Shown piece after piece: positions 2,981 through 50,303 of a stretch of 64,000 nt of DNA. The DNA is taken from positions 65,090 through 129,089 of the forward strand of contig JAGOTT010000001.1 in assembly GCA_018061645.1 (NCBI GenBank), given 5' to 3'. The notes under the pieces are model-generated. The model saw only the letters and a list, made by a program, of their open reading frames with translations. It was not told where the DNA came from and did not search any database. A program made the position numbers and the translations under genes. This DNA is from Candidatus Moraniibacteriota bacterium. GTDB taxonomy: Bacteria; Patescibacteriota; Minisyncoccia; Moranbacterales; UBA1568. The stretch's first letter is position 1. Each line of letters opens with the position of its first letter.

Positions 2981-3328
2981 TTAAGCAAGTCTTTTTATAA
3001 ACCCGGAGAGCATTCTTGATATTTCAACGGATTGCCCATACAGAGTATCAAACTTTCTTTGATTTATGTATCCGAGGTCGAGTGCTATATACAGCATGGA
3101 TCGGACTTCGCCGCTGGAGCCTTTTGCTATGAAAAGAAAATTTTTCAATTCCTTATCACTCTTACGTTCGAATCCTTCGGCGATATTGTTCATGACGGAG
3201 ACAGCTGCTCTCTGAATCTGATCGCGGAATCCGTAGTCTTTCATCTGCGAAAAAATACCGTATATGTCCGAGACGAGAATTCTTGACTTCTTCCATGCCT
3301 CGATGTCTTCGAACGTTTGTATACTCAT
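2981..3328 (-). CDS. Four-helix-bundle protein (23S rRNA intervening-sequence protein family, TIGR02436/PF05635-like)
   Basis: 115 aa; motifs QIQRAAVSVMNNIAEGF and FLFIAKGSSGEVRSMLYIA; paralog of ORFs at 39898, 41672, 50352. Confidence 0.9.
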   Translation of the reverse strand: MSIQTFEDIEAWKKSRILVSDIYGIFSQMKDYGFRDQIQRAAVSVMNNIAEGFERKSDKELKNFLFIAKGSSGEVRSMLYIALDLGYINQRKFDTLYGQSVEISRMLSGFIKRLA

Positions 3329-7718: not shown

Positions 7719-8984
7719 TTGATATTTACGTTTCGCATTTCGTCCCAACGCGAAAAACATGATGATACGAATATGTTTTCGAGCAAGAAAAGCCTGAAAA
7801 TACTGATGATCGCCCCGACACCGTTTTTCGCGGATCGGGGAACGCATATCCGCATTCTCGAGGAAGCGCTCGCCTTGCGGCGGCGCGGGCACGAGGTCAC
7901 GATAGCGACCTATCATATCGGGAACGACCTTCCGGAAGAAACAGCGAACGGAATCGACGTGCGTCGGATCCGGAGGCTCCTCTTCTGGTACAAGAAACTC
8001 GAAGCGGGACCGGACTGGCAGAAGATCATCCTCGACCTCATGCTCATCCGAAAGACATTTTTTCTCGCGCGAACCTGGAAGCCGGATATCATCCATGGAC
8101 ATCTCCACGAAGGCGTCCTCATCGGATGGATCGTGAAGCGTGCGCTTTTTTGGAGGAATATGAGACTCGTCGCGGATTTTCACGGGAGCCTGACGAAGGA
8201 GATGGTCTCGCACGAGTATCTCGGAGGCGGACTCCTCCGGAAGGTTTTCGAGCGGATCGAGCGGGTTATCGACAACCTCGGCGACGCGGCGGTCGCGAGC
8301 TCGTGGACCAATGCCGCCGATATATCGCGTATCCGGCGACGCGGCGGCGTCGAAGTCGCGCTCGACGGTGCCAGGATGCATGATCGTCTTGACGCGGAAA
8401 AACGTCTGCTTGTCCGCGAGAAGCACGGTATTCCGGCCGACGCGACGGTTATCGTCTATACCGGTGCCTTCATCGCCAACAAAGGGATCAAAGCGCTCGT
8501 CGGAGCGATGCCTTCGGCGCTTGCACGTGACGGAAACCTTTTTTTCGTAGTCGCCGGGTTTCCCCGCAACGAGCTTGAACCGCTCCTCGAGGAACAGGAA
8601 ATCCGTTCCCGCGTCAAGATCATAAGCCCTCTCCCGTATTTCGAACTCGGGGAAATCCTCGGGATGAGCGATATCGCGATCGATCCGAAACGCGACGGGA
8701 CGGGGCAGGCGAGCGGAAAGATGCTTCAGTACATGGGAGCGGAGCTGCCGGTGGTCTGTTTCGACACGCGGAACAACCGTGAGTACCTCGGCGACGGGGG
8801 AGTATTCGCGACGGACGATACCACCGAAGCGCTCGCGGATGCGATCGTCGCACTTTCCGCGCGCCGTGACGACTGGGAGAAACTCGGCGGAGACAACGGT
8901 ATCCGTGCGCATGCGTTCAGTTGGGATAAGACCGGTGAAAAATTGGAAGGAATCTATGAAATTGTTTCTCGTAAAGATCGGTAA
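7719..8984 (+). CDS. Glycosyltransferase family 4
   Basis: 421 aa (start may be second Met at ~7773); GT4-like N-domain and C-domain; antisense 462-aa ORF rejected. Confidence 0.8.
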   Translation: MIFTFRISSQREKHDDTNMFSSKKSLKILMIAPTPFFADRGTHIRILEEALALRRRGHEVTIATYHIGNDLPEETANGIDVRRIRRLLFWYKKLEAGPDWQKIILDLMLIRKTFFLARTWKPDIIHGHLHEGVLIGWIVKRALFWRNMRLVADFHGSLTKEMVSHEYLGGGLLRKVFERIERVIDNLGDAAVASSWTNAADISRIRRRGGVEVALDGARMHDRLDAEKRLLVREKHGIPADATVIVYTGAFIANKGIKALVGAMPSALARDGNLFFVVAGFPRNELEPLLEEQEIRSRVKIISPLPYFELGEILGMSDIAIDPKRDGTGQASGKMLQYMGAELPVVCFDTRNNREYLGDGGVFATDDTTEALADAIVALSARRDDWEKLGGDNGIRAHAFSWDKTGEKLEGIYEIVSRKDR

Positions 8985-10197
8985 GGCGTGGACAGCGATA
9001 CGGCGGGAGGGATTATTCTCCGGCGGGAAACGGGTATTTGGCGCGTTCCTTACATTGTTTCGCCGCGTCCATCCCGGGGATATCCTGTTTGTCACGAACG
9101 GGGTCGGGGACAGCGCCCGCTACCGCTGCGAGCATGTCGCGGAGGAGCTCCGTTTCCGCGGGTTTCGAACCGCTGTCACCGTGCAGGACAACCCGTTCCT
9201 TCCGTCGTATGCGGATCGGTTCGCGGTATTCGTCTTTCATCGCGTACTCTACACTCCGTCGGTCGCGAAACTCGTCGAGCGCATCAAGGAGCAGGGAAAG
9301 GAAATCATCTTCGAGACGGATGACCTCGTGTACGATCCCGCGTACCTCGTTCACATGGATTATTTCAAGGTCATGAATCCGCTCGAACGCAAGCTCTATG
9401 AACATGGTGTCGGCGGAGAGATTCTCGCCGACCCGTACGTGAAGGTGGCGACGACCACGACGACGTTCCTCGCCGACAAGCTTCGTGAGAGAGGGAAGCA
9501 GGTCTTTATCGTTCCGAACAAGCTTTCGGAAGCGGACGTGCGGATCGCCTCTGTCATTGCGAGCGAAGCGCGGCAATCCAGTCAGAAAAAGACTTCATGG
9601 ATTCCCGGGTCAAGCCCGAGGATGACAAATGATAAAATTACCCTCGCCTACTTCTCCGGGTCCGCGTCCCACAACAAGGACTTCGCGACCATCACCGGAC
9701 CCTTGCTTTCGATACTCGGGAAATATCCCGAGACGGAGCTTTTCATATATGGTCCGCTCGACCTCGACGCGCGGTTCGATGCATTCGGAGATCGCGTGAA
9801 AAAGGTTCCGTATACGCCGCGCGAAAAACATCTGGAGAATGTCGCTGCGACCGACGTCAATCTGGCACCGCTCGAGATTGGCAATCCCTTTTGCGAGTCG
9901 AAGTCGGAACTCAAATTCTTCGAAGCGGGGATATTCGGCGTACCGACGGTCGCCTCCGCTACCCGTACTTTCCGGGAAGCGATCGAGGACGGAGAAGACG
10001 GCTTCACGGCGGCCACGGATGCGGAATGGACAACCAAACTCGAAAAACTCATACTGGATCCCGCGTTGCGCGAAGAAATGGGAGAGAAAGCCCGTGCGAA
10101 GTCGCTTGAGAAATACGCGACGATGAACGCCAAGAACGAATCCTATTATCAGTATCTCATCGGCAAGATAGCGAAATCCATTCCTGCGTCATCCTGA
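8956..10197 (+). CDS. Glycosyltransferase (GT4-like) carrying an in-frame palindromic-repeat insertion
   Basis: start moved to ATG giving MKLFLVKIG; C-terminal GT motif FFEAGIFGVPTVAS; peptide SVIASEARQSSQKKTSWIPGSSPRMTNDK encoded by repeat 9552-9628. Confidence 0.75.
   Translation: MKLFLVKIGKAWTAIRREGLFSGGKRVFGAFLTLFRRVHPGDILFVTNGVGDSARYRCEHVAEELRFRGFRTAVTVQDNPFLPSYADRFAVFVFHRVLYTPSVAKLVERIKEQGKEIIFETDDLVYDPAYLVHMDYFKVMNPLERKLYEHGVGGEILADPYVKVATTTTTFLADKLRERGKQVFIVPNKLSEADVRIASVIASEARQSSQKKTSWIPGSSPRMTNDKITLAYFSGSASHNKDFATITGPLLSILGKYPETELFIYGPLDLDARFDAFGDRVKKVPYTPREKHLENVAATDVNLAPLEIGNPFCESKSELKFFEAGIFGVPTVASATRTFREAIEDGEDGFTAATDAEWTTKLEKLILDPALREEMGEKARAKSLEKYATMNAKNESYYQYLIGKIAKSIPASS
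9552..9628. repeat. Family-1 palindromic repeat element, in-frame inside GT gene
   Basis: tgtcattgcgagcgaagcgcggcaatccag ... ggattcccgggtcaagcccgaggatgacaa; first 33 nt identical to copy at 42815-42847. Confidence 0.8.
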
Positions 10198-12634: not shown

Positions 12635-12679
12635 CCTCCTGCGCTATCCCAGCCGATACCTGTTCCCGCCCTTCTTCTG

Positions 12680-12706
12680 CTATTCTGAGCGTAGCGAAGA
12701 ATCCAG
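12680..12706. repeat. Family-1 repeat half-element (intergenic)
   Basis: ctattctgagcgtagcgaagaatccag. Confidence 0.6.
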
Positions 12707-13255: not shown

Positions 13256-13290
13256 TTTTCATTCCGAGCGAGTTCTCGAGTCGAGAAATC
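13256..13290. repeat. Family-1 repeat unit (intergenic)
   Basis: ttcattccgagcgagttctcgagtcgagaaatc, same subtype as 25921-25955. Confidence 0.6.
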
Positions 13291-13292
13291 TG

Positions 13293-19727: not shown

Positions 19728-20015
19728 TTACGTAAGTGTACTTAAAACAGAGAAGCCCCCAAAGAGTTTTAAGTATGAAGAAGATATGCCAAGAGCGTTA
19801 TGCTGCCACACCTCGAGCGGAAGGATGAATATGCCGTCGTAGAGCAATTTTCCTTATTATGCATTGGCAGTCAATGCAGTAAACCACTAAGCAAAGCAAA
19901 AGAACTTCACGCGGGATTATTTTGAGTTTAGCCTTATGAATCGCTTTACAAAATTGGGTTTTTATTATAAAATAGTGTACAGTAGTAAGTTTAAAGCTAA
20001 CAACCAGTAACTATT

Positions 20016-20612
20016 ATGGATAAAAAGCCAAAAAAAGGTGAATACATAGAGATCATATTACGATCTCAAAAAACGGTCTTCTCTACGAAAGACATTGCTT
20101 TGTTGTGGGGTGAAAGAGTGAACGTCTCTGTTCGTGTGAGACTTTCTGATTATGTGAAAAATAAAAAGTTGATCAGAGTTCGTCAGGGTATTTACGTCAA
20201 AGATAACAATTATGATCGACAGGAATTAGCGACTCGAATTTATACCCCGGCATATATCAGCTTTGAAACCATATTGACTCGAACAGGAATAAACTTTCAA
20301 TATTACGGAAACATTTTTGTTGCTTCCTATGTCACCAGAGAGATTGAAATTGATGGACAAAAAATAAATTTCGTGAGAATGAAGGATTATGTGTTGAGCA
20401 ATACGATCGGAATTGAAGAGCAGGACAACGTAGCCAGAGCGACCAAGGAACGCGCATTTCTTGATAGGGTATATATCAGCAAAGATTATCACTTCGACCA
20501 CTTGAATGTTCTGGATTGGGACAAGGTTTTTGAAATTTTGCCAATCTATCGTAACGAAAAAATGAACAAGAAAGTGGAGGAGTATTACCAATCATACAAA
20601 GAAACACTATGA
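20016..20612 (+). CDS. AbiEi-like antitoxin/transcriptional regulator (type IV TA, abortive infection)
   Basis: 198 aa; translationally coupled (ATGA overlap) to DUF1814 nucleotidyltransferase; AbiEi_4-like composition. Confidence 0.55.
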   Translation: MDKKPKKGEYIEIILRSQKTVFSTKDIALLWGERVNVSVRVRLSDYVKNKKLIRVRQGIYVKDNNYDRQELATRIYTPAYISFETILTRTGINFQYYGNIFVASYVTREIEIDGQKINFVRMKDYVLSNTIGIEEQDNVARATKERAFLDRVYISKDYHFDHLNVLDWDKVFEILPIYRNEKMNKKVEEYYQSYKETL

Positions 20613-21304
20613 CCATTGATTATCCAAAACACAGAAATATCCTCCTACAGATATTGAAAGATATTTTTTCCGACACATCTATAGCCCCATTCTTAGGATT
20701 CAAGGGTGGTACAGCTGCTTTGATGTTCTATGATCTGGATCGCGATTCTGTCGATATCGATCTCGACTTATTAGACGAAAGCAAGGAGCAAGAGGTGTTT
20801 GAAAAGATTCAAAAGATAGTTGCTCGTTACGGCAAGATGATTGATTCAAAAATGAAACGATTCAATCTTGTGGTTGTCATATCGTATGCGGAGAAATCTC
20901 AGAATATCAAGGTTGAAGTAAGCCGTCGGAATTTTGGTTCAAAATACGAGTCAAAAACACTTTTGGGCATCCCGATGCTCGTCATGGTTCAGGAAGATAT
21001 GTTTGCCAATAAATTGATGGCAATGTATGAACGGATTGGCAAGACGAGTCGAGACGTGTATGATGTGTATTTTTTTGCGAAAAATCGTTGGTCAATAAAC
21101 AAGACATTGGTTGAGAATCGAGCTAATATTCCGTATAAAGAGCTATTGACAAAGTGTATCCAGCTATTGGAAAAAATGGATAATCGTCATATTCTCGATG
21201 GTCTCGGCGAAATGCTTTCCGAACCAAAGAAAGATTGGGCTCGAGCAAAACTTCGGACAGATACTATTTTTCTCTTGGAAGTATTGAGAAGTTTCGAAGA
21301 ATAA
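20609..21304 (+). CDS. AbiEii/AbiGii-family nucleotidyltransferase toxin (DUF1814)
   Basis: 231 aa; motif GFKGGTAALMF and DIDLD typical of DUF1814 NTases. Confidence 0.65.
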   Translation: MTIDYPKHRNILLQILKDIFSDTSIAPFLGFKGGTAALMFYDLDRDSVDIDLDLLDESKEQEVFEKIQKIVARYGKMIDSKMKRFNLVVVISYAEKSQNIKVEVSRRNFGSKYESKTLLGIPMLVMVQEDMFANKLMAMYERIGKTSRDVYDVYFFAKNRWSINKTLVENRANIPYKELLTKCIQLLEKMDNRHILDGLGEMLSEPKKDWARAKLRTDTIFLLEVLRSFEE

Positions 21305-21393
21305 AAAGAAAGAGAACCATCGTTTTATCGGTCGATGCCCTCTTTCGGATACTGCGTTGATAGTATATGCCATCCCATAAAAAACAAAAACCA

Positions 21394-21433
21394 TTCCGTA
21401 TCCGTTGGAACGGACTGACCGGAAAATACCGGA
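21394..21433. repeat. 40-bp direct repeat copy 2 (right boundary of AbiE island)
   Basis: identical to 19683-19722. Confidence 0.85.
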
Positions 21434-21477
21434 AGGAGGTTACGTAACCGGTTACGTAATAACCAGCGATACCACCT

Positions 21478-22656
21478 ATGAAACGATTGATGGACACGGC
21501 GCGGCGGGTCGCGCGCGAACTTCGGAAAAACGATCTCCGGGATTTTACCCGGAAAGCCTGGTTCTATTCGTTCGGGAAGGGAAGAATGCTCTGGGCGCTC
21601 GATCCGGATGATTGGAAACGAAAGAAAGCGAAGGCAGCAGTATATTTTTCGAAGTATCCGGTCGGGAATGGAGGCGAACGACCGAATATCGTCTTCATCG
21701 TTCCGGGAACGTGGATTTCCGGCGGTATCGCGGTCATATTGCGGCATGCCAACCTGCTAAAGACACGCGGATATGACGTGACTATCGTCACCCAGGATCT
21801 CAAGGCTTCTTTTCCGTGGTATGCGGGACAGGATGTTCCGGTCGTGCCGATCGACCGGGTATGGGCGCTTCTTGGGAAAGGGATTGATATCCTCGTTGCG
21901 ACCGGGTGGAACTCCGCTCCGACCGTCGATCTGCTCCCGGCGAAACGGAAGATTTATTTCGTCCAGCTCGACGAGCGCCGCTTCTACGACGACGAAGCGA
22001 CGAAGAATTTCGTCGGGGAAACCTATCGGCTTTCTTTCGAATATGTCGTCATGGCGCGGTGGATGCAAGAGTGGCTCCGGGACGAATTCGGTCATGAGGC
22101 GGCCTATGTTCCGAACGGCCTCGATACGGACCGGTTCCGACCGACGGATCCCGTCGAGCCGAAAGATGTCCGCCCGCGCGTCCTGATCGAGGGGCCGATC
22201 GATATCCCGTTCAAGGGGGTTGCGGACGCGTACGAAGCGGTGAAGGATCTCGACTGCGATATCTGGATGGTGAGTAGTCGCGGGACACCTCCGCAGGAGT
22301 GGCGGTGTGAACGGTTTTTTGAAAGCGTACCGATCGACGATATGCCGGGCATCTATTCGTCCTGCGACATCCTGCTCAAGATGAGTACGGTGGAGAGCTT
22401 CGCATATCCGCCGCTCGAGATGATGGCCTGTGGCGGTGTCCCGGTCATCCTGCGGGTATCCGGTATCGAGGAATATGCGGAACACGACAGGAACTGTCTG
22501 ATTATTGAAACAAAAGAAGAAGCGCGGGCAGCCGTGGAGAAACTGCTCGACGATGCCGATCTGCGTGGCAGGCTTTCCGAAAACGGACTGAAAACTGCGA
22601 AAGAGTGGTCGTGGGACCGATCCGCCGAAGCGATGCGAAAGGTCATAGCCGGATGA
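21478..22656 (+). CDS. Glycosyltransferase (GT4-like)
   Basis: 392 aa; C-terminal ESFAYPPLEMMACGGVPV resembles GT1/GT4 E-x7-E region; RBS aggagg near possible internal start. Confidence 0.65.
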   Translation: MKRLMDTARRVARELRKNDLRDFTRKAWFYSFGKGRMLWALDPDDWKRKKAKAAVYFSKYPVGNGGERPNIVFIVPGTWISGGIAVILRHANLLKTRGYDVTIVTQDLKASFPWYAGQDVPVVPIDRVWALLGKGIDILVATGWNSAPTVDLLPAKRKIYFVQLDERRFYDDEATKNFVGETYRLSFEYVVMARWMQEWLRDEFGHEAAYVPNGLDTDRFRPTDPVEPKDVRPRVLIEGPIDIPFKGVADAYEAVKDLDCDIWMVSSRGTPPQEWRCERFFESVPIDDMPGIYSSCDILLKMSTVESFAYPPLEMMACGGVPVILRVSGIEEYAEHDRNCLIIETKEEARAAVEKLLDDADLRGRLSENGLKTAKEWSWDRSAEAMRKVIAG

Positions 22657-24799: not shown

Positions 24800-24858
24800 T
24801 CCCAAGGACCGTCAGGTCTCTCCAAGGGTAAACAGGTATATTGTGCCGATGCCGTGCG

Positions 24859-24890
24859 CCTGTTAGCTGTTCCTTGTTGATTGTTTCCTG
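24859..24890. repeat. Family-2 repeat copy (cctgttagctgttccttgttgattgtttcctg)
   Basis: shares ttgttgattgtt / ctgtt...cctg core with 40272-40314 and 55820-55895. Confidence 0.5.
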
Positions 24891-24891
24891 A

Positions 24892-26655
24892 TTAGAGGTA
24901 GTATCTTGGAATAATCACATTCACGATCGCATAGAGCTGGAGGAGTATCATCGCGAGCGCAAGGATTTTCAAGATCATTTCAAAAGTCTTTTCTCCATCT
25001 GTCATTCTGAGCGTAGCGAAGAATCCCGTTCCTATTTTGTCATTCTGAGCGTAGCGAAGAATCCCGAGATTCCTCGATAGACTCGGAATGACAATACCCC
25101 TTACCCACGAAACCGCAATCCCGACCCCGACGACGACAAGCACCAGATGCCCGATAAGGTTCGGCAGGAAATACCGTCCCGGCTGTCCGATGAGTACCTG
25201 TCCGGTTGCGTCGAATACGCGCCAGTCGTAGAAACGGATGGCGAACTGGAGCGAAATAATCATCCCGAGAAAAAACACGAGATACTTCCGTTCCGGCACC
25301 CGCCCCACTTTGTCATTGCGAGGGAGCACAGCGACCGCGGCAATCCAGTCCATTTTTTTCAAAACAGGCGCCAATAAATACATAAGCACCGCCACAAATC
25401 CGACGATCTCGATCCAATTGATGACCGACAGGATCCACTCCGGAATCGGTGTGTCGAGCCATCCGAAGTTTCCCCAGTACGAAAGTAACGTGTCGCGGAA
25501 TTCTCCCTGACGCATGGTCTTGTCGAGATACTTACCAATCGATTCGAGAGGGGAGTCGAACTTTGATAGAGCGGTCGCATTGGTGATCCCGATAAGATAA
25601 TCCTTCGGCACTGCAAGCAGACCGAACCCGACCAGTGTGATGGTTGTAATTCCGAGATACGCGAAAAACTTTCGCACTTTGTCATTCCGAGCTTCCTTCC
25701 TGTCATCCCGAGCGTAGTCGAGGGATCTCGTATATCGCTGATACGCCCCCCACACAAACAAAGGATACAACGCGGCAACGAGCACGATCCCCGGACCCTT
25801 CGAGAGGAGTCCGAGCACCGCGGCGATGATTGCGATAATCGCCCACTTTGTCATTCCGAGCCCCCCGTCTGTCATTCTGAGCGTAGCGAAGAATCCCGTC
25901 CCTTTGGCGGCATCTCCTTCTTTGTCATTCCGAGCGAGTTTTCGAGTCGAGGAATCTACGCTTCGTAGAAACGAAACCCCCGCATACAGGAACAACGAGA
26001 ACGAGAAAATGAGCGCGACATCGATATTTACCTGCGCTGCGGTGATAGCGAACATCGGCTGAAAAGCGACCAGCGTAGTGAAGAGTAGTGAAGTCTTTTC
26101 CGAAAGCCCGATTTTTCGCACGGTCAGATACATGAGCAGGACCGTCGCCGCACCGAAGGCAACCCCAAGCATTCGCATCGAGAAAATTCTGGTGAAGATG
26201 CTCTCATCGGAGAAGAACCGCTCGAGCCACGACGCGAAAAGGTAATAAACGGATTTCGTGCCGGACGTAGCTGTCGGACTTACGTCGACGTATCGCTTCC
26301 AGTCGTTTTCAGTGATCTGCTTTTCCAGTGATTTATCGGAAAAATTCTGTATATTTTGTCGCTCGAAGGTGAGTTCGTTGAATTTTGCGATAGAAGCGCT
26401 TTGCACCATCTCTTCCGGAAGATTCGATGTCCGGATATCTTTTGCGTCGATGAAGTATTTTCCGCTTTCGTACGCATGTATTTCCCATGTCTTCTCCTTT
26501 GGTTCCGCCCAGTGCTGTGCGGTTCCGTAATGCACCTGCTCATCCGGATTCTGGAACATCGGAATGAGAAAGCTCAAAACGGCGCCTTCAACAGCGAAAA
26601 GCGCGAGCAATGCCGCGAGCCGCATATTTGGAGTGGATATTTGCGGAAGCCTCAT
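24892..26655 (-). CDS. Polytopic GT-C (PMT-like) membrane glycosyltransferase heavily invaded by in-frame palindromic repeats
   Basis: 587 aa; loop-1 motif NPDEQVHYG (PMT FDEVHF-like); contains at least 7 family-1 repeat units all read as ARNDK/GFFATLRMTD peptides. Confidence 0.55.
   Translation of the reverse strand: MRLPQISTPNMRLAALLALFAVEGAVLSFLIPMFQNPDEQVHYGTAQHWAEPKEKTWEIHAYESGKYFIDAKDIRTSNLPEEMVQSASIAKFNELTFERQNIQNFSDKSLEKQITENDWKRYVDVSPTATSGTKSVYYLFASWLERFFSDESIFTRIFSMRMLGVAFGAATVLLMYLTVRKIGLSEKTSLLFTTLVAFQPMFAITAAQVNIDVALIFSFSLFLYAGVSFLRSVDSSTRKLARNDKEGDAAKGTGFFATLRMTDGGLGMTKWAIIAIIAAVLGLLSKGPGIVLVAALYPLFVWGAYQRYTRSLDYARDDRKEARNDKVRKFFAYLGITTITLVGFGLLAVPKDYLIGITNATALSKFDSPLESIGKYLDKTMRQGEFRDTLLSYWGNFGWLDTPIPEWILSVINWIEIVGFVAVLMYLLAPVLKKMDWIAAVAVLPRNDKVGRVPERKYLVFFLGMIISLQFAIRFYDWRVFDATGQVLIGQPGRYFLPNLIGHLVLVVVGVGIAVSWVRGIVIPSLSRNLGILRYAQNDKIGTGFFATLRMTDGEKTFEMILKILALAMILLQLYAIVNVIIPRYYL
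25000..25094. repeat. Family-1 repeats: two tandem units plus inverted partner
   Basis: tgtcattctgagcgtagcgaagaatccc x2 (25000, 25039) then gagattcctcgatagactcggaatgacaa. Confidence 0.85.
25311..25348. repeat. Family-1 repeat unit
   Basis: tgtcattgcgagggagcacagcgaccgcggcaatccag. Confidence 0.75.
25678..25729. repeat. Family-1 repeat, two tandem left-arm units
   Basis: tttgtcattccgagcttccttcctgtcatcccgagcgtagtcgagggatctc. Confidence 0.75.
25846..25955. repeat. Family-1 repeat, three tandem units
   Basis: tgtcattccgagcc.., tgtcattctgagcgtagcgaagaatccc, tgtcattccgagcgagttttcgagtcgaggaatc. Confidence 0.8.
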
Positions 26656-26694
26656 GCCAAGAGTATACTATAAAGGCTAAAAAAAGGCATTTCC

Positions 26695-27999
26695 ATGATT
26701 TCATCTGCATCGGTAAAACAAAAATTCTTCCGTCTTGCGGAGATTATACATCTCCGTCTTTTCGGGCATGGGATGGGTGAGGAGATGCGAAAATTTCTCG
26801 GAAATCTCTCGTGGTCGTTTTTCGGTGGCGTAATCGCCGCCGGGATCATGTTCGCCGTCAATATCCTTGCCGGCCGCTGGCTCGGTCCGGAGGAGTATGG
26901 GAAGTATAATCTTGTTTTTCTGATGGCGCAGGTGTTTTTCATTCCGATGCTGCTTGGAATGGATGTTTCTGCTGCGCGAGCGGTTTCGATCGCCGATGCG
27001 AACAAGGAAAAAATCAGTCGGATAATCTCCGGGTCGGTATTCGTCGTACTCGGCTCGATTGCCGTGACTGTTCCACTGCTCTTTTTCGGAAGCGATCATA
27101 TAGCTGAATTTTTTTCCGCGACCTCGGATATGGTGCTTATCGCGATATTTTTTGCTGTAGCGATAGCACTGAAAGCGCTTTTCGACGGCGCAGTGAGAGG
27201 ACTTCATTTTTTCCGTTTTCAGGCGATGACGAGAATGTTTGAAGGAATCGTGGGGATGATAATCTTTCTCGCCGCGTTTTTTTTTCTTCGCGACCACCTC
27301 TCTCTCGCCTTCTCGGTCGTCATTTCCGCGCTGCTTGTTTCTTCGATATATGTACTGAAGATGTGGGTGTTTTTTTCAGGATTTAGCATCGCATCGATAC
27401 GTGAACTTCTGCGGTACGCGAAATTTGTTGTTATCGGATCCGTGATAACGCTTATTCTCGGATATGGCGATCGCTACGTCGTGAATCGCTACCTCGGTAT
27501 CGAAGAACTCGGAATATATTCGGCCTATTACACTGCTACCATTCTTGTCGTAGGGCAATTTATCGCGATATTCGCGAATGTCTTTTTTCCGATGATCGCA
27601 AAGGTCGGAGAAAAGCGGGAAATAATGAAAAAGCTCGACCGCCTCGTCCTTATCGGGATCATCCCCGCAGTCGCGGGAATCTTTGTGATCGGTTTTCTCA
27701 TTCTCAAGCTCTTCGGCAGCGCTTATGCTGTTGATCCGCTTACGCTTCTCCTTTTCGGAGTGGTCGCGGCTCTCCAGTTCTTTGTTTCGTTTTACTCCGG
27801 TATGGTGAACGCGCATAACGAGCGGACATATTTCTGGGGACTCACTTTTTTTGCCATGAGAGCGATCGTCTATGCGGCCTACATCGTCGCGCTTATCGCT
27901 ACCAATTCGGTTACCGTTTCCGCTATTCTTGCCGGTCTTATCGTCAACTATGTTGTCGATATGTTGAATCTCCGTTATATTATAAGGAAATATGCCTGA
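26695..27999 (+). CDS. Oligosaccharide/polysaccharide flippase (Wzx-like, MOP superfamily)
   Basis: 434 aa (start may be at Met ~26773); LGPEEYGKYNLV motif; ~12 TM helices. Confidence 0.7.
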   Translation: MISSASVKQKFFRLAEIIHLRLFGHGMGEEMRKFLGNLSWSFFGGVIAAGIMFAVNILAGRWLGPEEYGKYNLVFLMAQVFFIPMLLGMDVSAARAVSIADANKEKISRIISGSVFVVLGSIAVTVPLLFFGSDHIAEFFSATSDMVLIAIFFAVAIALKALFDGAVRGLHFFRFQAMTRMFEGIVGMIIFLAAFFFLRDHLSLAFSVVISALLVSSIYVLKMWVFFSGFSIASIRELLRYAKFVVIGSVITLILGYGDRYVVNRYLGIEELGIYSAYYTATILVVGQFIAIFANVFFPMIAKVGEKREIMKKLDRLVLIGIIPAVAGIFVIGFLILKLFGSAYAVDPLTLLLFGVVAALQFFVSFYSGMVNAHNERTYFWGLTFFAMRAIVYAAYIVALIATNSVTVSAILAGLIVNYVVDMLNLRYIIRKYA

Positions 28000-29104
28000 A
28001 TACGATATCGTCATCATCGGAGCGGGAATTTCCGGCGCGACACTCGCCGAGCGGTACGCGTCGTCCGGAAAGCGTGTTTTGGTCGTCGAAAAACGTGACC
28101 ATATCGGCGGGAATTGCTATGACCATGAAAACGAGGATGGCATCCTTGTTTCGGAGTATGGCGCGCACCTCTTTCATACCAATCATGAGGACGTCTGGGA
28201 ATACGTGAATCGGTTTTCCGAATGGTATCCGTACGAGCACCGCGTGCTTTCTTCGGTTGACGGAAAACTCGTTCCTGTTCCGGTGAATATCGATACGGTG
28301 AACGCGCTTTTCGATATGAACATCGAAACGGAGCAGGAGATGCAAGAATGGCTCGAAGAGAACACGGAGAAGATAGAAGATCCGAAAAACAGCGAGGAGT
28401 CGGCTTTGCGGCGAGTCGGGAAGGTTCTTTATGAGAAAATGTTCAAGAACTACACGAAGAAACAGTGGGACATGTGGCCGAGCGAGCTCGAGGCGTCCGT
28501 GATGGACCGGATTCCTGTCCGGACGAATCATGACGATCGATATTTTTCCGACGCACACCAGGCGCTCCCGAAAGAGGGGTATGCCAGGATATTCGAAAGG
28601 ATGCTCGATCATCCGAACATCACTGTCAGACTCGGGGTGACATACGAAGATATCAAAAAGGATATCGGTGGATTTGAAAAACTTTTCTTCACGGGACCGA
28701 TAGACCAGTTTTTCGACTACAAATTCGGGGAAAAACTCCAGTATCGATCGCTCCGGTTCGAGTGGGAAACGCACGACAAGGAGATTTATCAGAATAATTC
28801 CGTCATCAACTATCCGTCGCTCGATATTCCCTATACTCGCATCATCGAATACAAGCACTTCACCGGACAGAAACATCCGAAGACGGTGATCTCCAGGGAA
28901 TACAGCTCTTGGGAAGGGGAACCGTACTACCCCGTCCCGAGCGAGCGCAACCGGCGAATATATGCCAAATATCAGGCGGAAGCGGAAAAATTGGAAAAGG
29001 AAGGTATATACTTCGTCGGTCGCCTCGCGAACTACAAGTATTTCAATATGGATCAGGCTTTCAAGAATGCCTTGGATCTTTTTAAAAAATTAGAAAATGA
29101 ATAG
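27992..29104 (+). CDS. glf: UDP-galactopyranose mutase
   Basis: MPEYDIVIIGAGISGATLAE FAD motif, GGNCYDHENEDGILVSEYGAHLFHTN; 370 aa. Confidence 0.9.
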   Translation: MPEYDIVIIGAGISGATLAERYASSGKRVLVVEKRDHIGGNCYDHENEDGILVSEYGAHLFHTNHEDVWEYVNRFSEWYPYEHRVLSSVDGKLVPVPVNIDTVNALFDMNIETEQEMQEWLEENTEKIEDPKNSEESALRRVGKVLYEKMFKNYTKKQWDMWPSELEASVMDRIPVRTNHDDRYFSDAHQALPKEGYARIFERMLDHPNITVRLGVTYEDIKKDIGGFEKLFFTGPIDQFFDYKFGEKLQYRSLRFEWETHDKEIYQNNSVINYPSLDIPYTRIIEYKHFTGQKHPKTVISREYSSWEGEPYYPVPSERNRRIYAKYQAEAEKLEKEGIYFVGRLANYKYFNMDQAFKNALDLFKKLENE

Positions 29105-29115
29105 AGGGTAAAATT

Positions 29116-30342
29116 ATGAAACTATTAATAGTTGCGCCAGATTTTTATCCGACTAACGGTGGATATGCCAATGCCATAAGCAATTTTTTTGATTGCCTCT
29201 CTCGGGATGATAGTAATATACAGATAACAGTCTTTACCCCAACGCCGATTGGGTCCAATGTTGAAATTCAAAGGAATAATGTGCTAATTTTAAGATTCCC
29301 TTTTAATAGGGCGTTGATGCCGTTTAAAGTTTGGGAAATTGTAGCTTATTTTAAGATAAGAAAATTTCTTAAAAAAAATGCGATAGACGTTGTGTTTTTT
29401 GAAACAGCTGAGTTTGGGCTGCTTGGATATTTATTGTCTATTTCTTTCAAGAAGGTTCTTGTGAGAATCCATGCTTGTACTGAGACAGAGGTAGCTATAT
29501 GGGGAACGCGCTTGTATGACAAAATCCATTCCTTTTTTATAAAGTTGTTTTTGAAAAAAGTAAAATGGATTTTGTCTACGAATAGCTATCATTTAGGATT
29601 CTATAAAAAATATTTTCTAATGGATGACGTATATAAAATTGCAAGCAAGGTTTTTTTTGTAGTTCCGAATACCGTTGTTGCTGATCCTGGAAACGAACAG
29701 CTAACCATAAGAGCAGTGAGAGAGACGGAGCTGTTTCCTAAATATGAAATTTTTTTGAAGCAGGGCCAGCGAATTTTTTTTGGTCTTGGGAGACTTAACC
29801 GAGTTGGATTGATGCAGAAAGGATTTGAGGATTTAATTTATGCAGTGTCCTTTATTAAAACTGAGGATGAGTATCTCTATAATAAAATAAAGATTGTTTT
29901 GGTTGGTGACGGTGAATGTAGAAAATACATTACAAATCTGATTAATAAACTCGAGCTCAGTGAGGCTTTTGTGATAATATCAAAAATGGAGCATAAGGAT
30001 GTACTTGCTTTTATGCATGAGTCTTCCGCTACCATGCTCTTTTCTCGATTTGAGGGGCTATCAATGTTTGCGTTGGAGGCATTGCACTCGGGGTCGCCAC
30101 TGCTGTTTGCTAGGAGTGGTGGTATAAGCGATCTTATTGGCGATAGCGGGAATGGACACCTGACCGATCCGCAGGATATTGACGGGATAAAAGATGGCAT
30201 AAAGAAAATCCTTCGTAGTACCGAAGGAGAGATAGAAGAAATGCGAAAGAAATCGCGCTCTCACTTTAATGAGAACTATGCGTCGGAAAAAACTATTAAA
30301 AAATTTATCAATATAATTAACTTGGTAAATAAATGTTACTAG
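29116..30342 (+). CDS. Glycosyltransferase family 4 (low-GC cassette)
   Basis: MKLLIVAPDFYPTNGGYANA; C-terminal EGLSMFALEALHSGSPL; AT-rich codon usage unlike neighbours. Confidence 0.75.
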   Translation: MKLLIVAPDFYPTNGGYANAISNFFDCLSRDDSNIQITVFTPTPIGSNVEIQRNNVLILRFPFNRALMPFKVWEIVAYFKIRKFLKKNAIDVVFFETAEFGLLGYLLSISFKKVLVRIHACTETEVAIWGTRLYDKIHSFFIKLFLKKVKWILSTNSYHLGFYKKYFLMDDVYKIASKVFFVVPNTVVADPGNEQLTIRAVRETELFPKYEIFLKQGQRIFFGLGRLNRVGLMQKGFEDLIYAVSFIKTEDEYLYNKIKIVLVGDGECRKYITNLINKLELSEAFVIISKMEHKDVLAFMHESSATMLFSRFEGLSMFALEALHSGSPLLFARSGGISDLIGDSGNGHLTDPQDIDGIKDGIKKILRSTEGEIEEMRKKSRSHFNENYASEKTIKKFINIINLVNKCY

Positions 30343-30346
30343 ATAT

Positions 30347-31174
30347 ATGGAAGAATACGAAAGTTCCTACACTAAAAAGAACCACTTCAGTTTTGGGAAA
30401 AACTGGAGCAAATTTCTGAAATCATTAAATGATGAAAAGATAGACGAGGCGAAGAAATCGCTCATTGAATTTTTTGGTGAAACTCGAACTATCAAAGGAA
30501 AGACGTTTATAGATATTGGATGCGGGAGTGGACTATTTTCTTTAGCTGCTTATCTACTTGGTGCTGAAAAGGTAGTGAGTGTTGATGTCGATCGCTTCTC
30601 TGTTTCGTGCGCAAAGTATTTGAGAGAGAAGTCTGGAAATCCTAATAATTGGAAGATTTTACAGGGCTCTGCTTTGGATGAGAGTTTTATAAAATCTTTA
30701 GGAAAGTTTGACATTGTTTATTCTTGGGGGGTTCTTCACCATACCGGGGATATGTATAGAGCGTTCGGCAATGTCATTAATTTAATAAAAGATGATGGAA
30801 TCTTTTATCTTGCCATCTACAATAAATTTGAGAAGAGATTCAGGGGAGGGACTTCTCGTAGCTGGCTAAAAATAAAGAAAATCTATAATAAATCCGGCAA
30901 CACAACCAAGCAAATTTTAAATCTGGTTTATGCAACCTACTTGTTGCTTGTAAGGTCTGTTCTTCTGGAGAATCCGGGTAGATACATTAAAGAATATAAG
31001 ACACTTCGCGGAATGGACTTTTTTACTGACGTAAAAGACTGGTTGGGTGGCTATCCTTACGAATTTGCTACTGTTGATGAAATTGCTGATTTTTTTAAAA
31101 AGAAGGGGCTGCTAATTGAAAAGGTGAAGCCCATAATCGGGACTGGGTGTAATGAATTTTTGCTAAAAAAATAA
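30347..31174 (+). CDS. Class I SAM-dependent methyltransferase (low-GC cassette)
   Basis: motif I FIDIGCGSGLFSLAAYLLGA, VVSVDVD. Confidence 0.75.
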   Translation: MEEYESSYTKKNHFSFGKNWSKFLKSLNDEKIDEAKKSLIEFFGETRTIKGKTFIDIGCGSGLFSLAAYLLGAEKVVSVDVDRFSVSCAKYLREKSGNPNNWKILQGSALDESFIKSLGKFDIVYSWGVLHHTGDMYRAFGNVINLIKDDGIFYLAIYNKFEKRFRGGTSRSWLKIKKIYNKSGNTTKQILNLVYATYLLLVRSVLLENPGRYIKEYKTLRGMDFFTDVKDWLGGYPYEFATVDEIADFFKKKGLLIEKVKPIIGTGCNEFLLKK

Positions 31175-31193
31175 AGATTATTTTTATGTCAAG

Positions 31194-32315
31194 TCACTCT
31201 AATTCTGCGTAGAATACAGAGTAATGTTCTGCTATAGACTGCTTATCAAATAGTTTTTTAGCCTCTTCCTTCGCATTCCTCCCTAAGTTTTCCCGGAGCT
31301 CTTTTTTATCCGTAAGTAGCTCTATTGCGCTTGTGATAGCGGGTGCATTTTTTACTGTTACCAGAAAGCCCGTTGATTGATCCTTGATTAGGGCTCTATT
31401 TTCGGAGAGATCCGTTGTGATAATGGCTTTCCCTGATATCATTGCTTCGATGATGGCATTGCTCATTCCCTCTCCCTCGGTTGGTAAGACGAAGATATCA
31501 GTGATAGTAAGAATTTCCGGAACATCAGTTCGGTTCCCGAGGAATTTTATCGAATCTCTTGATTTGTAGCCCGATGCTTGTTTTTTTAGTTCTTCTTCTT
31601 TTTCTCCATCACCAACAAGAAGGAGAACCGCGTCCTCTTGTTTTTGAAAGATTTCTTCAAACGCAGCAAGGAGATATTCGTGCCCTTTCTTTCTTCTGAG
31701 TCTGCTGACGCAACTAATGACGAAGGCGTCTTCGGGGATTCCAAGAGAGGTTTTTTTCTTTGCTTTATTGATGTCTACCTGAAATTGGCTAGCGTCAATG
31801 CCATTTGGAATTACTGTAAACTTCTTTTCATTGGGAAGATGAAGTCTTCCCATCCATTCCTTCTTCGCTTTTTCAGTCTGCACCAGATAGTGAGTGACAA
31901 GTCCTTTTGTCAACCGGTCGAAGAAAGCGAGCCATTCCCATTGAAGCAGGAGACCTCTTTTTGATGAAACAATTTTTTTTATTCCAAAAAGTCTTCCGAG
32001 AACCCGTCCATAGAGATCGGCATGGATAAGATAAGTGACGAGAATATCAGGCTGAAATTCTCGAATAACTCTGTAGAAACGGTACATGACACCAAGGTCA
32101 AAGAGACCACGGAATTCGAGATAATGTACAGGGACGCCTTTTTCTTCCAGCTGTCTTCCAATAGGACCATGCCCCCTAACGCAGCAGACACGATTCTCGT
32201 GGTAGCCTTGAAGCTCAGGAAGAATCCGAAGGAGTTGTGTTTCCGCACCTCCAATTTCGAGACCACTTATGAGATGAAGTATCTTCCTTTTTTCTTGCAT
32301 ATATATTCTAGTCAA
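31194..32315 (-). CDS. Glycosyltransferase family 4 (low-GC cassette)
   Basis: ILHLISGLEIGGAETQLL N-terminus; C-terminal EGEGMSNAIIEAMISGKAII. Confidence 0.8.
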   Translation of the reverse strand: MTRIYMQEKRKILHLISGLEIGGAETQLLRILPELQGYHENRVCCVRGHGPIGRQLEEKGVPVHYLEFRGLFDLGVMYRFYRVIREFQPDILVTYLIHADLYGRVLGRLFGIKKIVSSKRGLLLQWEWLAFFDRLTKGLVTHYLVQTEKAKKEWMGRLHLPNEKKFTVIPNGIDASQFQVDINKAKKKTSLGIPEDAFVISCVSRLRRKKGHEYLLAAFEEIFQKQEDAVLLLVGDGEKEEELKKQASGYKSRDSIKFLGNRTDVPEILTITDIFVLPTEGEGMSNAIIEAMISGKAIITTDLSENRALIKDQSTGFLVTVKNAPAITSAIELLTDKKELRENLGRNAKEEAKKLFDKQSIAEHYSVFYAELE

Positions 32316-34231: not shown

Positions 34232-34238
34232 AGCACTG

Positions 34239-34264
34239 GATTCCCGCCTTCGCGGGAATGACAG
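34239..34264. repeat. Family-1 repeat half-element, self-complementary hairpin
   Basis: ggattcccgccttcgcgggaatgaca. Confidence 0.6.
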
Positions 34265-37912: not shown

Positions 37913-38000
37913 TGAGATTCCTCGACTCCAAGACTCGCTCGGAATGACAAAATGATGAAATCCTTCGACTGCGCTCAGGATGACAGCTTCGCTGTCATTT
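37913..38000. repeat. Family-1 repeats (two reverse-orientation units) in GT2-DUF2304 intergenic spacer
   Basis: gagattcctcgactccaagactcgctcggaatgacaa and gaaatccttcgactgcgctcaggatgaca; preceded by low-complexity tandem repeats 37861-37912. Confidence 0.75.
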
Positions 38001-39897: not shown

Positions 39898-40260
39898 ATG
39901 GAAAAGGATATCCTGAAGGAGAAGATGGATGGATTAGCGAAGGGTGTCTATGATGTGACAAAGAAATTTCCAAAGGATGAGATTTATGGAATAACATCGC
40001 AGTTGAGAAGGGCATCCTTATCGGTTATCCTGAATTATGTCGAAGGATTTGCTCGAACGGGTGACAAGGAATTGAAAAACTTTCTTCAGATATCGTACGG
40101 GTCGCTGAAAGAAACGAAATACCTTATATTTTTCTGTACCCGAGAAAAGTATATGACAAAGAAGGAGTATGGAGCTCTTATGGCGTTGACAGATGAGATA
40201 GGGGCGATGCTTTGGAAAAGAATCCAGAGCGTGAAAGGAAGAATCGCTGCTGGTAAGTGA
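39898..40260 (+). CDS. Four-helix-bundle protein (23S rRNA IVS protein family)
   Basis: 120 aa; QLRRASLSVILNYVEGF, FLQISYGSLKETKYL. Confidence 0.9.
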   Translation: MEKDILKEKMDGLAKGVYDVTKKFPKDEIYGITSQLRRASLSVILNYVEGFARTGDKELKNFLQISYGSLKETKYLIFFCTREKYMTKKEYGALMALTDEIGAMLWKRIQSVKGRIAAGK

Positions 40261-41671: not shown

Positions 41672-42043
41672 ATGACCAATGACCAATCCCCGAAAAAGAA
41701 ATTCGATCTTGAGGATCGGACGCTTGATTTTGCGAAGCGAGTCGTACGGATGTGTAAGGAGCTACCGACGAACACCGTAAACGATAATCTTGTAGATCAA
41801 GTGATCCGCTCCGCTGGTTCGGTCGGAGCGAATTATCGTGAAGCGAATGATGCGCTTGGTACGAAAGACTTTCTGATGCGTCTGAAGATTTCTCGAAAAG
41901 AGGTGAAAGAGACACATTTCTGGCTGGAGCTTATCATCGAAGCAAATCCGGATCTGAAGAAAAGAATCGAAAGCCTGTTTCAAGAATCGCTCGAGTTGAA
42001 AAAGATTCTTTCTGCTATAATCACGAAACTCCAGAATAAATGA
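41672..42043 (+). CDS. Four-helix-bundle protein (23S rRNA IVS protein family)
   Basis: 123 aa; VIRSAGSVGANYREAN, FLMRLKISRKEVKETHFWL; close paralog of 50352..50723. Confidence 0.9.
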   Translation: MTNDQSPKKKFDLEDRTLDFAKRVVRMCKELPTNTVNDNLVDQVIRSAGSVGANYREANDALGTKDFLMRLKISRKEVKETHFWLELIIEANPDLKKRIESLFQESLELKKILSAIITKLQNK

Positions 42044-42095: not shown

Positions 42096-42106
42096 AATTG
42101 GTGATT

Positions 42107-43429
42107 ATGAAAGTGTTATTTCTCAATTATGAGTATCCTCCGCTCGGTGGAGGTGCGGCGAACGCGACGCGGTATATCCTGCGGGAGTTTTCGCGCATGC
42201 CGGGTGTCGAGGCACATCTCGTGACGAGCGGGATGGGGAAGGAGTATGAGAAGGAACATATCGGCGGATCCGTGTGGGTGCATCGGCTGCCGATTGGCAA
42301 GGATCCGGGAAAGATCCACTCGCAGTCGGTGCGGGATCTGATTGTCTACAGCGCGAAGGCGTGGTGGTTTTCTTCGTGGATCATCCGTACGGCGAAACGC
42401 GAGGGAAATCCCTTCGACCGGACGATTGCCTTTTTCGGGATTCCCTGCGGGGCGCTCGCTCTTTGGTTCAAGTGGCGGTTTGGTATCCCATATGTCGTGT
42501 CGCTCCGCGGGTCGGATGTCCCCGGATACAGCGAGAAGTATGACCGGCTCTATCTTTTCCTCGCGCCGTTCGTCCGGCTCGTGTGGAAGAAGGCGCTCGC
42601 GGTCGTTCCGAACAGTCGGGGGCTCGCGGAACTTGCCGGAAAGACCGCTCCGCGACAGGCATTCGAAATTATTCCGAACGGTGTGGACACGGAGGAATTC
42701 CGTCCCGATCCGGCGCGCGAACGTGACGGATATTTCCGCATACTGGCCGTGTCCCGGCTTACGCCGCGGAAGGGGATTCGATTCCTCATCCGGGCGATGT
42801 CGATACTTTCTCCGTCTGTCATTGCGAGCGAAGCGCGGCAATCCAGTGAAAAGGGAAAAGGACTGGATCGCCACGCCTCTGGCGAAGACGTCGGGGCTCG
42901 CGATGACAGATATTCGAAACTGGAACTCTGGATCGCGGGTGACGGGGAGGAGAAAGCGGAACTTGAAGTGCTCGCGAAGGAATGCGGCGTCTCCGACAAG
43001 GTGAAGTTCTTCGGGGCGGTACCGCATGAGCATCTCGGCCGATACTACGGACTTGCGGACGTCTTCTGTCTGCCGTCGCAGAACGAGGGCATGAGCAACA
43101 CCGTGCTCGAGGCGCTCGCGGCGGGGCTCCCGATCGTCGCGACGGTGACCGGCGGGACGGAGGAATTGATCCGTGACGGGGAGAACGGTCTCTTCGTCGT
43201 ACAACGGTCGCCGGAGGATCTCGCCGAGAAGCTCGGAAAACTCTTGGCCGACGAGTCACTCCGAGTGCGTATGGGAGAGGCGGGCCGGAAGCGTGCCGAG
43301 GAGATGAATTGGGAAAGCGTTGCAGGCCAATTTCTTGAGCTGTGCTCAAGAAAAAAAGCACAAATCTTAGAACACAAAGATCCAAACAAAACACAGACCA
43401 CAAAACTGAAAACTGACCGATCGGAATGA
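42107..43429 (+). CDS. Glycosyltransferase family 4 with in-frame palindromic-repeat insertion in interdomain linker
   Basis: MKVLFLNYEYPPLGGGAANA; C-terminal EGMSNTVLEALAAGLPIV; inserted peptide SVIASEARQSSEKGKGLDRHASGEDVGARDDR from repeat 42817-42908. Confidence 0.85.
   Translation: MKVLFLNYEYPPLGGGAANATRYILREFSRMPGVEAHLVTSGMGKEYEKEHIGGSVWVHRLPIGKDPGKIHSQSVRDLIVYSAKAWWFSSWIIRTAKREGNPFDRTIAFFGIPCGALALWFKWRFGIPYVVSLRGSDVPGYSEKYDRLYLFLAPFVRLVWKKALAVVPNSRGLAELAGKTAPRQAFEIIPNGVDTEEFRPDPARERDGYFRILAVSRLTPRKGIRFLIRAMSILSPSVIASEARQSSEKGKGLDRHASGEDVGARDDRYSKLELWIAGDGEEKAELEVLAKECGVSDKVKFFGAVPHEHLGRYYGLADVFCLPSQNEGMSNTVLEALAAGLPIVATVTGGTEELIRDGENGLFVVQRSPEDLAEKLGKLLADESLRVRMGEAGRKRAEEMNWESVAGQFLELCSRKKAQILEHKDPNKTQTTKLKTDRSE
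42817..42908. repeat. Family-1 palindromic repeat element, in-frame inside GT4 gene
   Basis: tgtcattgcgagcgaagcgcggcaatccagt ... ctggatcgcc...ctcgcgatgaca. Confidence 0.8.
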
Positions 43430-46118: not shown

Positions 46119-46153
46119 ATTTTTTCGAAGCCGTTTTTTCACCCGAAAAGTCT

Positions 46154-50268: not shown

Positions 50269-50303
50269 GCAGAGGATACAAGAGACAAGAAATGCAACGT
50301 TGG

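Follow-up and report, generated by a model that had tools for sequence, protein, structure and literature searches.

A short hairpin repeat recurs in frame in the predicted cytoplasmic loops of a Moranbacteria GT-C glycosyltransferase

We analyzed a 64,000-nt stretch of DNA from a Moranbacteria metagenome-assembled genome (MAG; GCA_018061645.1, contig JAGOTT010000001.1, 65,090-129,089 of the forward strand), hereafter the window, whose own positions serve as coordinates throughout. Within it, a single gene for a GT-C type membrane glycosyltransferase (DUF2142/PMT; 24892-26655, - strand) contains ten copies of a short palindromic repeat unit. Inspection of this gene reveals that the visible copies are in frame, free of stops and placed in short predicted cytoplasmic loops, while the catalytic outward loops and the helices are untouched. 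Comparison with four orthologues further indicates that copies have been repeatedly gained, lost and replaced at four places of the gene. We consider it probable that the repeats represent a small selfish hairpin element resembling repetitive extragenic palindromic (REP) sequences, one that selection has filtered to stop-free frames in permissive loops.

Judged by its sequence, the host gene is a live GT-C glycosyltransferase, in line with the original prediction made from the bare sequence. Its open reading frame (ORF) is uninterrupted over 587 codons and, as had been claimed, stays open through every unit; the NCBI protein model is 577 aa long and starts at the second ATG. The protein is 100% identical to a Candidatus Moranbacteria MAG protein that is encoded on a 130-kb contig and annotated as DUF2142 domain-containing, and Pfam matches exceed their cut-offs both for DUF2142 (42.2 bits, cut-off 30.1) and for PMT (41.4 bits, cut-off 22.7). 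It has the polytopic membrane module common to PMT, STT3/PglB, ArnT and ALG enzymes, which defines the GT-C fold. The AlphaFold (AF2) model, based on 115 sequences (114 homologues and the query), has a mean predicted local distance difference test score (pLDDT) of 89.5 and a predicted template modeling score (pTM) of 0.91. The conserved acidic residues expected in the first extracytoplasmic loop of GT-C enzymes are present as D38 and E39, both invariant in the 115 sequences, within a P37-D38-E39 motif directly after transmembrane helix (TM) 1 (aa 11-33). All 18 family-invariant residues of this set are retained in the query, as are the nearly invariant ones. Identity between the query and orthologue P0002 is 77% at third codon positions against 86.9% for the core overall, which implies ~92% identity at first and second positions. 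Orthologue divergence at third positions is ~3 times that at first and second positions, an excess that indicates purifying selection on the gene. It is the Pfam matches, the AF2 model, the retained invariant residues and this selection signature that together identify a live GT-C gene.

The core of the unit, TGTCATNNNGAGC, lies on the + strand of this gene at 25000, 25038, 25311, 25680, 25701, 25849, 25870 and 25923, all within the ORF, and each of the eight unit positions originally listed does carry it. An additional inverted unit occupies the - strand at 25066-25094 (core 25081-25093) and forms a 27-nt inverted pair with 25037-25063. Allowing at most 1 mismatch, the core matches 18 times in the window against 0.16 expected from dinucleotide shuffles. 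The gene makes up 2.8% of the window and holds ten of its ~25 units (P = 6e-10) and four of its 14 independent sites (P = 5e-4), so the suggestion that it is a hotspot is borne out. The earlier claim of at least seven units in a single orientation holds with the correction that one unit is inverted, so that nine of ten point one way (two-sided p = 0.02). The units are not reported as tandem arrays by Tandem Repeats Finder (TRF). One further stretch at 24946-24958, whose native codons (..LALAMIL.. in the last TM helix) look like the unit head when read in antisense (ATCATCGCGAGCG), was considered as an insertion and ruled out, as it is conserved in all orthologues (L001-L004) and has no 3' arm.

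The units form four insert blocks. Block 1 (25847-25957, +; aa 232-263, loop TM4/TM5, pLDDT 57-72) comprises a truncated 15-nt 'head' without a 3' arm at 25847-25861, a full unit at 25870-25898 and a full long-loop unit at 25921-25957. Block 2 (25678-25730, +; aa 309-323, loop TM6/TM7, pLDDT 67) consists of a second truncated 15-nt head lacking its 3' arm (25678-25692), located 21 nt upstream of a full unit at 25701-25730. Block 3 (25311-25348, +; aa 431-444, loop TM8/TM9, pLDDT 66) is a single unit of a longer-loop variant, TGTCATTGCGAGGGAGCACAGCGACCGCGGCAATCCAG, translated as ..DWIAAVAVLPRNDK.., and orthologue P0002 has this unit at the same site with 40 of 42 nt identical. Block 4 (24995-25095; aa 517-553, loop TM10/TM11, pLDDT 63-69) combines two identical direct units at 25000-25028 and 25038-25066 (both +) with the inverted unit at 25066-25094 (-), and the doublet at 25037-25094 folds as DNA with -16.1 kcal/mol (z -5.5). 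The block 1 unit at 25870-25898 is identical to both direct units of block 4.

A full unit measures ~22-45 nt and follows the scheme (Y)TGTCAT-NNN-GAG-(variable inner hairpin)-N'N'N'-ATCC(AG/CG). AT plus NNN pairs with N'N'N' plus AT to form a 5-bp basal stem, in which the inner three pairs covary, and GAG is conserved. Units are arranged as singlets, inverted doublets or local stacks. The window contains 22 heads (GTCATNNNGAG) of six NNN types (TGC, TCC, TCT, CCC, CGC and CCT), and 19 of them are followed 14-70 nt downstream by an exact reverse complement of their NNN and then AT; the chance of such an arm is ~5% per head. Heads from other genomes behave alike (233 of 278 with a complementary arm, from the 120 loci listed), and a genome scan pattern that made no demand of complementarity yielded almost only complementary arms. 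In a MAFFT alignment, the 26-nt and 27-nt unit classes are offset by one column. Rfam gave 0 matches at the gathering score over the whole window, and at E values up to 10 within 24800-26700 only the chance-level matches mir-61 (20 bits, where the gathering score is 77) and sX5.

The inner part of the unit is mostly GCGAAGC, GCGTAGC or GCGCAGC, and otherwise a longer stem or a CCCGC...GCGGG stem. The commonest inner loop thus matches exactly the motif d(GCGNAGC), which we take to be an extraordinarily stable DNA mini-hairpin, reportedly the work of Hirao and co-workers; that motif is a structural one, whereas the unit described here is a genetic element. The match hints that the element acts as single-stranded DNA. 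Folding z-scores cannot test the mini-hairpin, since the DNA parameters of ViennaRNA miss the stability of d(GCGNAGC), but DNA folds exceed those of shuffles for the CCCGC type (z -4.3), the long-stem type (z -4.6) and the inverted doublet (z -5.5).

Translation of the units argues for an element defined at the level of nucleic acid. The 29-mer TGTCATTCTGAGCGTAGCGAAGAATCCCG occurs three times in the GT-C gene in identical form; two copies give GFFATLRMT and one gives ILRYAQNDK, the two reading frames arising because two of the copies lie 38 nt apart. An identical 29-mer read in two frames points to a nucleic-acid element and not to a protein repeat. One frame yields ..ARNDK.., ..PRNDK.., ..YAQNDK.. 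and ..ARDDR.., and another ..GFFATLRMTD.. and ..LGMTK..; the ..ARNDK.. and ..GFFATLRMTDG.. translations first noticed were accordingly recovered, with PRNDK, YAQNDK, ARDDR and LGMTK as additional variants. Of the three frames available in antisense orientation, one has a TGA, and all 12 antisense intragenic units of the window are found in the other two. Sense intragenic units are mostly read in the VIAS/VIPS frame. The original proposal of selection for frame-preserving insertion agrees with the use of two stop-free frames alone by antisense units, and with the kept invariant residues and the third-position divergence reported above.

Comparison with the 114 homologues identifies the blocks as insertions. 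The family has a median length of ~485 aa, with 79 of the 114 homologues at 495 aa or less, against 587 aa for the query. The four blocks (32, 15, 14 and 37 aa; 98 aa in total), each made of repeat units, are lacking in >85% of the homologues and explain the whole length excess of the query. AF2 confidence drops in the 10-residue bins that overlap the four blocks and nowhere else. Hydropathy indicates ~11 TM helices, and every repeat peptide lies in a loop between them, as had been supposed. The acidic loop after TM1 faces outward in solved GT-C structures. Topology was assigned from hydropathy, from setting the D38/E39 loop outside and from a positive-inside count of K/R residues, whose density is 0.16-0.37 in the N-terminus and cytoplasmic loops (CL) versus 0-0.20 in extracytoplasmic loops (EL). 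On this model, all four blocks are predicted to lie in cytoplasmic loops, namely CL2-CL5 (TM4/5, TM6/7, TM8/9 and TM10/11).

The same loops vary across the family. Length gains of at least 8 aa among the 115 sequences affect CL2 (5 sequences), CL3 (14), CL4 (41) and CL5 (9) and no other loop, while the length of EL2, EL3 and EL5 is constant (9, 7 and 17 aa) and that of EL1 and EL4 almost constant. Repeat-type peptides such as FLDYARNDK, WIPAFAGMT, SLDYARDDK and RFLDKLGMT appear in CL loops of many unrelated lineages, and some median-length CL4 loops of homologues look like decayed units. The second possibility raised from the bare sequence, that the inserts now work as loop extensions, amounts to exaptation: selection on the peptide, positive or purifying, would preserve them as functional cytoplasmic extensions, for instance as K/R-rich surfaces for docking or regulation or as longer helices. 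The four blocks are indeed K/R-rich and sit in predicted cytoplasmic loops, as the positive-inside rule would have it; some of their parts appear in the AF2 model as helical continuations of TM helices; and old, decayed peptides of repeat-like sequence (RFLDKLGMT.., RFLKKIRMGTEK) seem to survive in CL4 of many homologues. However, the same DNA unit gives unrelated peptides in its two frames, most homologues work with loops of 3-12 aa, and pLDDT within the blocks is just 57-72.

The orthologues bear on exaptation and on turnover alike. They derive from independent samples and assemblers (Logan SRR34217545, SRR6490211 and SRR26424636; JGI 3300048585), and their core nucleotide identity to the query or to each other is 84-87%. 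All four have in-frame units at the same four sites, with differing subtypes and numbers. Site 4 holds one TGC-type unit in P0002 and P0003 versus two TCT units and one inverted TCC unit in the query. At site 2, the orthologues show 2-4 stacked heads or units with a 21-nt period, and P0002 and P0003 differ by an extra 57-nt segment that begins exactly at TGTCAT. Several orthologues have truncated heads stacked 5' of a full unit with the same 21-nt (7-codon) period, and these stacks are taken as local duplications given that solo heads are rare in other genomes. The idea that solo heads are 5'-truncated retro-copies was rejected as a general rule, since most of the 45 heads among 278 elsewhere that have no exact arm are point-mutated full units; the 21-nt stacks seem particular to the lineage of this gene.

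One comparison could speak for a retained function: the site-4 unit is identical in P0002 and P0003 over 42 of 42 nt despite 84% core identity, a difference of 16% across core positions. DNA-level homogenization would account equally well for a unit whose nucleotides are conserved, and the identity of this unit is consistent either with DNA-level constraint or with homogenization. Moreover, the peptides and their lengths at a given site differ considerably between orthologues with 84-87% core DNA identity. We thus regard exaptation of the inserts as unlikely.

The orthologues also address the possibility of artefact, whereby repeats misled the assembly of the MAG and so gave rise to the blocks or to the number of copies in them, or else the gene is a pseudogene in decay. 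A MAG is indeed the source, short-read assemblers could collapse or expand identical 29-nt units at a 38-nt distance, and a second assembly of the exact allele was not found, as the 90% protein cluster contains the same contig alone and contigs with neighboring genes stop short. Identical proteins of this organism do occur in other Logan runs (L125 and L126), on 6-11 kb contigs that end before the repeat-bearing genes. Set against these concerns are the in-frame units at the same four sites in four independently sampled and assembled orthologues, an ORF that is open over 587 codons with all family-invariant residues retained, and the third-position substitution excess that signals purifying selection. 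An artefact is accordingly very hard to credit.

Outside the GT-C gene, the window contains further copies, and ~19-20 of its ~25-26 units lie inside four ORFs. The gene for a Wzy_C (O-antigen-ligase-like) membrane protein (56294-57802, +) is a second hotspot with three of the 14 sites (P = 4e-3), each an in-frame inverted doublet (56466-56542, 56962-57058 and 57562-57647). These doublets are lacking in shorter homologues, and close relatives have other unit types at the same sites. Two more in-frame inverted doublets are found in a GT4 glycosyltransferase gene (42098-43429, +; doublet at 42817-42908) and in a GT1-like gene (8779-10197, +; doublet at 9552-9627), and their + arms are identical over 31 nt in two glycosyltransferase genes 33 kb apart. 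As both genes encode cytoplasmic GT-B-type enzymes, the element is not limited to membrane proteins. The window has six inverted doublets, while singlets and same-strand stacks dominate in the GT-C gene. The doublets end in inverted CTGTCAT...ATGACAG, and none of the six has a target-site duplication, searched for as a direct repeat of at least 3 nt within 4 nt of the ends.

The remaining copies are intergenic. A unit with a degenerate head lies in sense 3' of an epimerase gene (12678-12706, +), and another in sense 3' of a PemK gene (13257-13291, +). A CCCGC-type unit, GTCATTCCCGCGAAGGCGGGAATCC, is located between two - strand genes (34238-34262, -) and folds as DNA with -8.9 kcal/mol (z -4.3). 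Two tandem units (37915-37985, -) separate two - strand glycosyltransferase genes, and a last one (57867-57912, -) lies immediately 3' of rtcB (57921-59420, -). All intergenic units of the window thus lie shortly 3' of a gene and have their GTCAT strand in sense, as is the case at an Uhrbacteria locus (L030 5308-5333); this is the opposite of the majority orientation in the GT-C gene. Five of the 14 sites fall into the intergenic 6.6% of the window (P = 1.5e-3; ~5-fold enriched), which implies that genic copies are selected against, and the genic survivors are concentrated in four envelope-glycan genes.

A function in nucleic acid is another rival reading. The hairpins would then act in mRNA or DNA, through translational pausing after TM pairs, mRNA stabilization, attenuation, or recombination-based phase or antigenic variation. 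The covarying stem and the conservation of the unit across phyla favor such a role, as do the intergenic copies, whose position just 3' of a gene in sense recalls mRNA stabilizers of the REP type, the restriction of host genes to envelope-glycan enzymes, and the stable structure of block 4 mRNA (z -3.1). In contrast, blocks 1-3 show no excess of mRNA structure over shuffles (z +0.55, +1.25 and +0.80), the GT-C gene units are antisense and so opposite to the intergenic copies, no Rfam family matches, and most homologues are without units, as are the three other GT-C paralogues of the window. These paralogues, of PMT_2 type, stand in a row at 44475-46217 (-), 46154-48397 (-) and 48487-50268 (+) and have zero repeat units. 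A nucleic-acid function therefore seems to us quite improbable.

The unit is spread widely among bacteria. An exact-pattern scan of one genome per species returned at least 120 loci. Carriers among the loci listed, with Bradyrhizobium and Legionellales among the main ones, include sphingomonads, Lysobacterales, Acidobacteria, Dehalococcoidia, Chloroflexaceae, Ignavibacteria, Bacteroidota, Verrucomicrobia, Nitrospirae, Fibrobacter, Desulfovibrio and Firmicutes, along with Gracilibacteria and Uhrbacteria of the Candidate Phyla Radiation (CPR); the dominant form among these loci is CGTCATTGCGAGCGAAGCGAAGCAATCCAG. A near-identical unit occurs in Alpha-, Gamma- and Epsilonproteobacteria, Acidobacteria, Chloroflexi, Bacteroidota, Firmicutes, cyanobacteria and CPR. 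It is also present on plasmids of Novosphingobium (>40 places in one record), Methylobacterium, Methylosinus, Legionella and Nostocales, almost always outside annotated genes, and in Helicobacter canis prophages. No gene family recurrently adjoins the unit in the 120 listed loci, where just large paralogous families (ABC transporters, short-chain dehydrogenases/reductases and sensor kinases) recur.

No description of the unit was found in Rfam or in the searchable literature, although it may be related to the small QMITE2/REP-like elements of Coxiella or to the small dispersed repeats of Nostoc, both compared here by description alone; literature on the encoded peptides, and on transposable elements of the miniature inverted-repeat kind (MITEs) or REP doublets (REPINs) in CPR, yielded nothing relevant. 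The closest parallel in behavior is the Rickettsia palindromic element (RPE), which, as far as the summary of Ogata et al. 2000 in PMC10969869 goes, is ~100-150 bp long, encodes one conserved peptide and is limited to Rickettsia. Shared features, on the same summary, are palindromic dispersed repeats in frame in unrelated genes, intact ORFs, fold-compatible sites and a reduced genome (PMC10969869). The units described here differ in measuring 15-45 nt, in using two frames, in reaching ten per gene and in occurring in many phyla, with Moranbacteria as the host. REP sequences and REPINs are extragenic by definition, lineage-specific and found flanking the gene for a cognate REP-associated tyrosine transposase (RAYT) (PMC3116915). 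Like them, the unit is a short and imperfect palindrome in which a conserved 5' motif stays unpaired; it occurs in singlets, inverted doublets that form a long hairpin, tandems and nested clusters, and it lacks target-site duplication (PMC3116915). In contrast, ~three quarters of the units here are intragenic, the 5' motif is GTCAT and not GTAG, many phyla carry the unit, and the window has no RAYT; unlike in REPINs, the arms of a doublet often have different inner hairpins. The small QMITE2/REP-like elements of Coxiella burnetii are also reported in Bradyrhizobium and Rhodobacter, and QMITE2 copies are ~80-190 nt long and mostly intergenic (PMC5896051). These elements are likewise small REP-like palindromes without terminal inverted repeats or direct repeats; they sometimes overlap an ORF or lengthen it in frame, and their distribution crosses classes (PMC5896051), a comparison made here by description alone and not between sequences.

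By analogy, then, the phenomenon works like the Rickettsia RPE and the element resembles REP/REPIN, yet the defining features of each fail. The unit falls outside RPE because size and the single conserved peptide do not apply, and outside REP because extragenic location, cognate RAYT and lineage specificity do not. A classical MITE, derived from a DDE transposon, was also rejected, as the six doublets lack target-site duplications. The doublets do have inverted ends, but the window contains no parent insertion sequence. Elhai et al. reportedly described in 2008 small dispersed repeats of 21-27 nt in Nostoc, said to be confined to cyanobacteria. These, compared by description alone, are likewise mobile-looking, far below 100 nt, in part hairpins and nested, and the present unit also occurs on Nostocales plasmids; they differ in that they are not described as serial in-frame inserts in membrane-protein loops. 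The Nostoc repeats are also mentioned in PMC3116915.

A small REP-like selfish element would explain the repeats as follows. It would spread as selfish DNA mobilized in trans, either by a single-strand route of the REP/IS200 kind or through copies that recombine or undergo gene conversion with one another; such routes are suggested by the absence of target duplication, together with a hairpin that has a conserved unpaired flank. In a genome with ~7% non-coding DNA, survivors would be left in intergenic spacers and in the few loops where non-essential envelope-glycan enzymes permit them. Sites that already hold a unit may be safer or more attractive targets for another, so that nests develop, and the 21-nt (7-codon) stacks of truncated heads would arise by local duplication. 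The K/R-rich peptides (RNDK, LRMT) would be tolerated as cytoplasmic loop extensions and not needed.

Several points weigh against this explanation. The mode of mobilization, which we infer, is its weakest link, and among the ~50 ORFs of the 64-kb window none has a Pfam match to a Y1/HUH, DDE or other transposase. Turnover is read from the comparison of orthologues and not from a directly observed insertion or excision. Under nearest-neighbor DNA parameters, single units are no more stable than shuffles (z -0.2 to -1.1); with this weak thermodynamic support for single units, the case for a hairpin is carried by covariation. The 9:1 orientation bias in the GT-C gene is not explained by stops, as two frames are open in either orientation. 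Nor does a replication-strand cause account for it: GC skew is positive in every 2-kb bin, which places the window on one replichore with the + strand leading, and genes and units lie on both strands. Lastly, near-identity across phyla is unusual for REP-type elements because REPs co-evolve with a lineage-specific transposase, and it could reflect a conserved host function instead.

The glycan cluster around these genes has other features of its own. Four genes for four-helix-bundle proteins of the 23S-rRNA-intervening-sequence type (bAvd-like) lie among the glycan genes at 2981-3328 (-), 39898-40260 (+), 41672-42043 (+) and 50292-50723 (+). Two of them have imperfect inverted repeats of 31-36 nt, rich in A/C, on either side (39810-39840/40284-40314 and 50304-50337/50726-50759) and look like small mobile cassettes. 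A link between these cassettes and the repeat unit was dismissed, since the cassette inverted repeats are unrelated A/C-rich sequence. Two islands of low GC content (20001-22000 and 28001-32000; 0.39-0.43 against 0.53-0.58 elsewhere), one with an AbiEi/AbiEii toxin-antitoxin pair and the other with glf, a GT4 gene and a methyltransferase gene, are probably horizontally acquired parts of the cluster.

A broader reading is conceivable, although we hold it only tentatively and think it more doubtful than not. The units, laid out as GTCAT-stem-GAG-(GCGNAGC)-stem-ATCC, would form a pan-bacterial, previously undescribed family of ~27-nt mobile hairpin DNA with neither target duplication nor a lineage-specific transposase. 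In gene-dense CPR genomes this family would persist in the cytoplasmic loops of membrane and glycan enzymes and keep supplying them with new loop sequence, part of which would later become integrated into the protein.

For the enzyme family, the results indicate that a GT-C glycosyltransferase tolerates a 20% gain in length, provided that the additions stay in predicted cytoplasmic loops. The contrast between four variable loops and five that are length-invariant or nearly so amounts to a natural insertion-scanning experiment on a GT-C enzyme. The units also inflate protein lengths and create spurious small ORFs, and they may complicate the assembly of MAGs from short reads. If the repeats are indeed selfish, as we think probable, then selfish DNA inside protein-coding genes, best known from Rickettsia, operates in CPR bacteria too, with an element ~5 times smaller.

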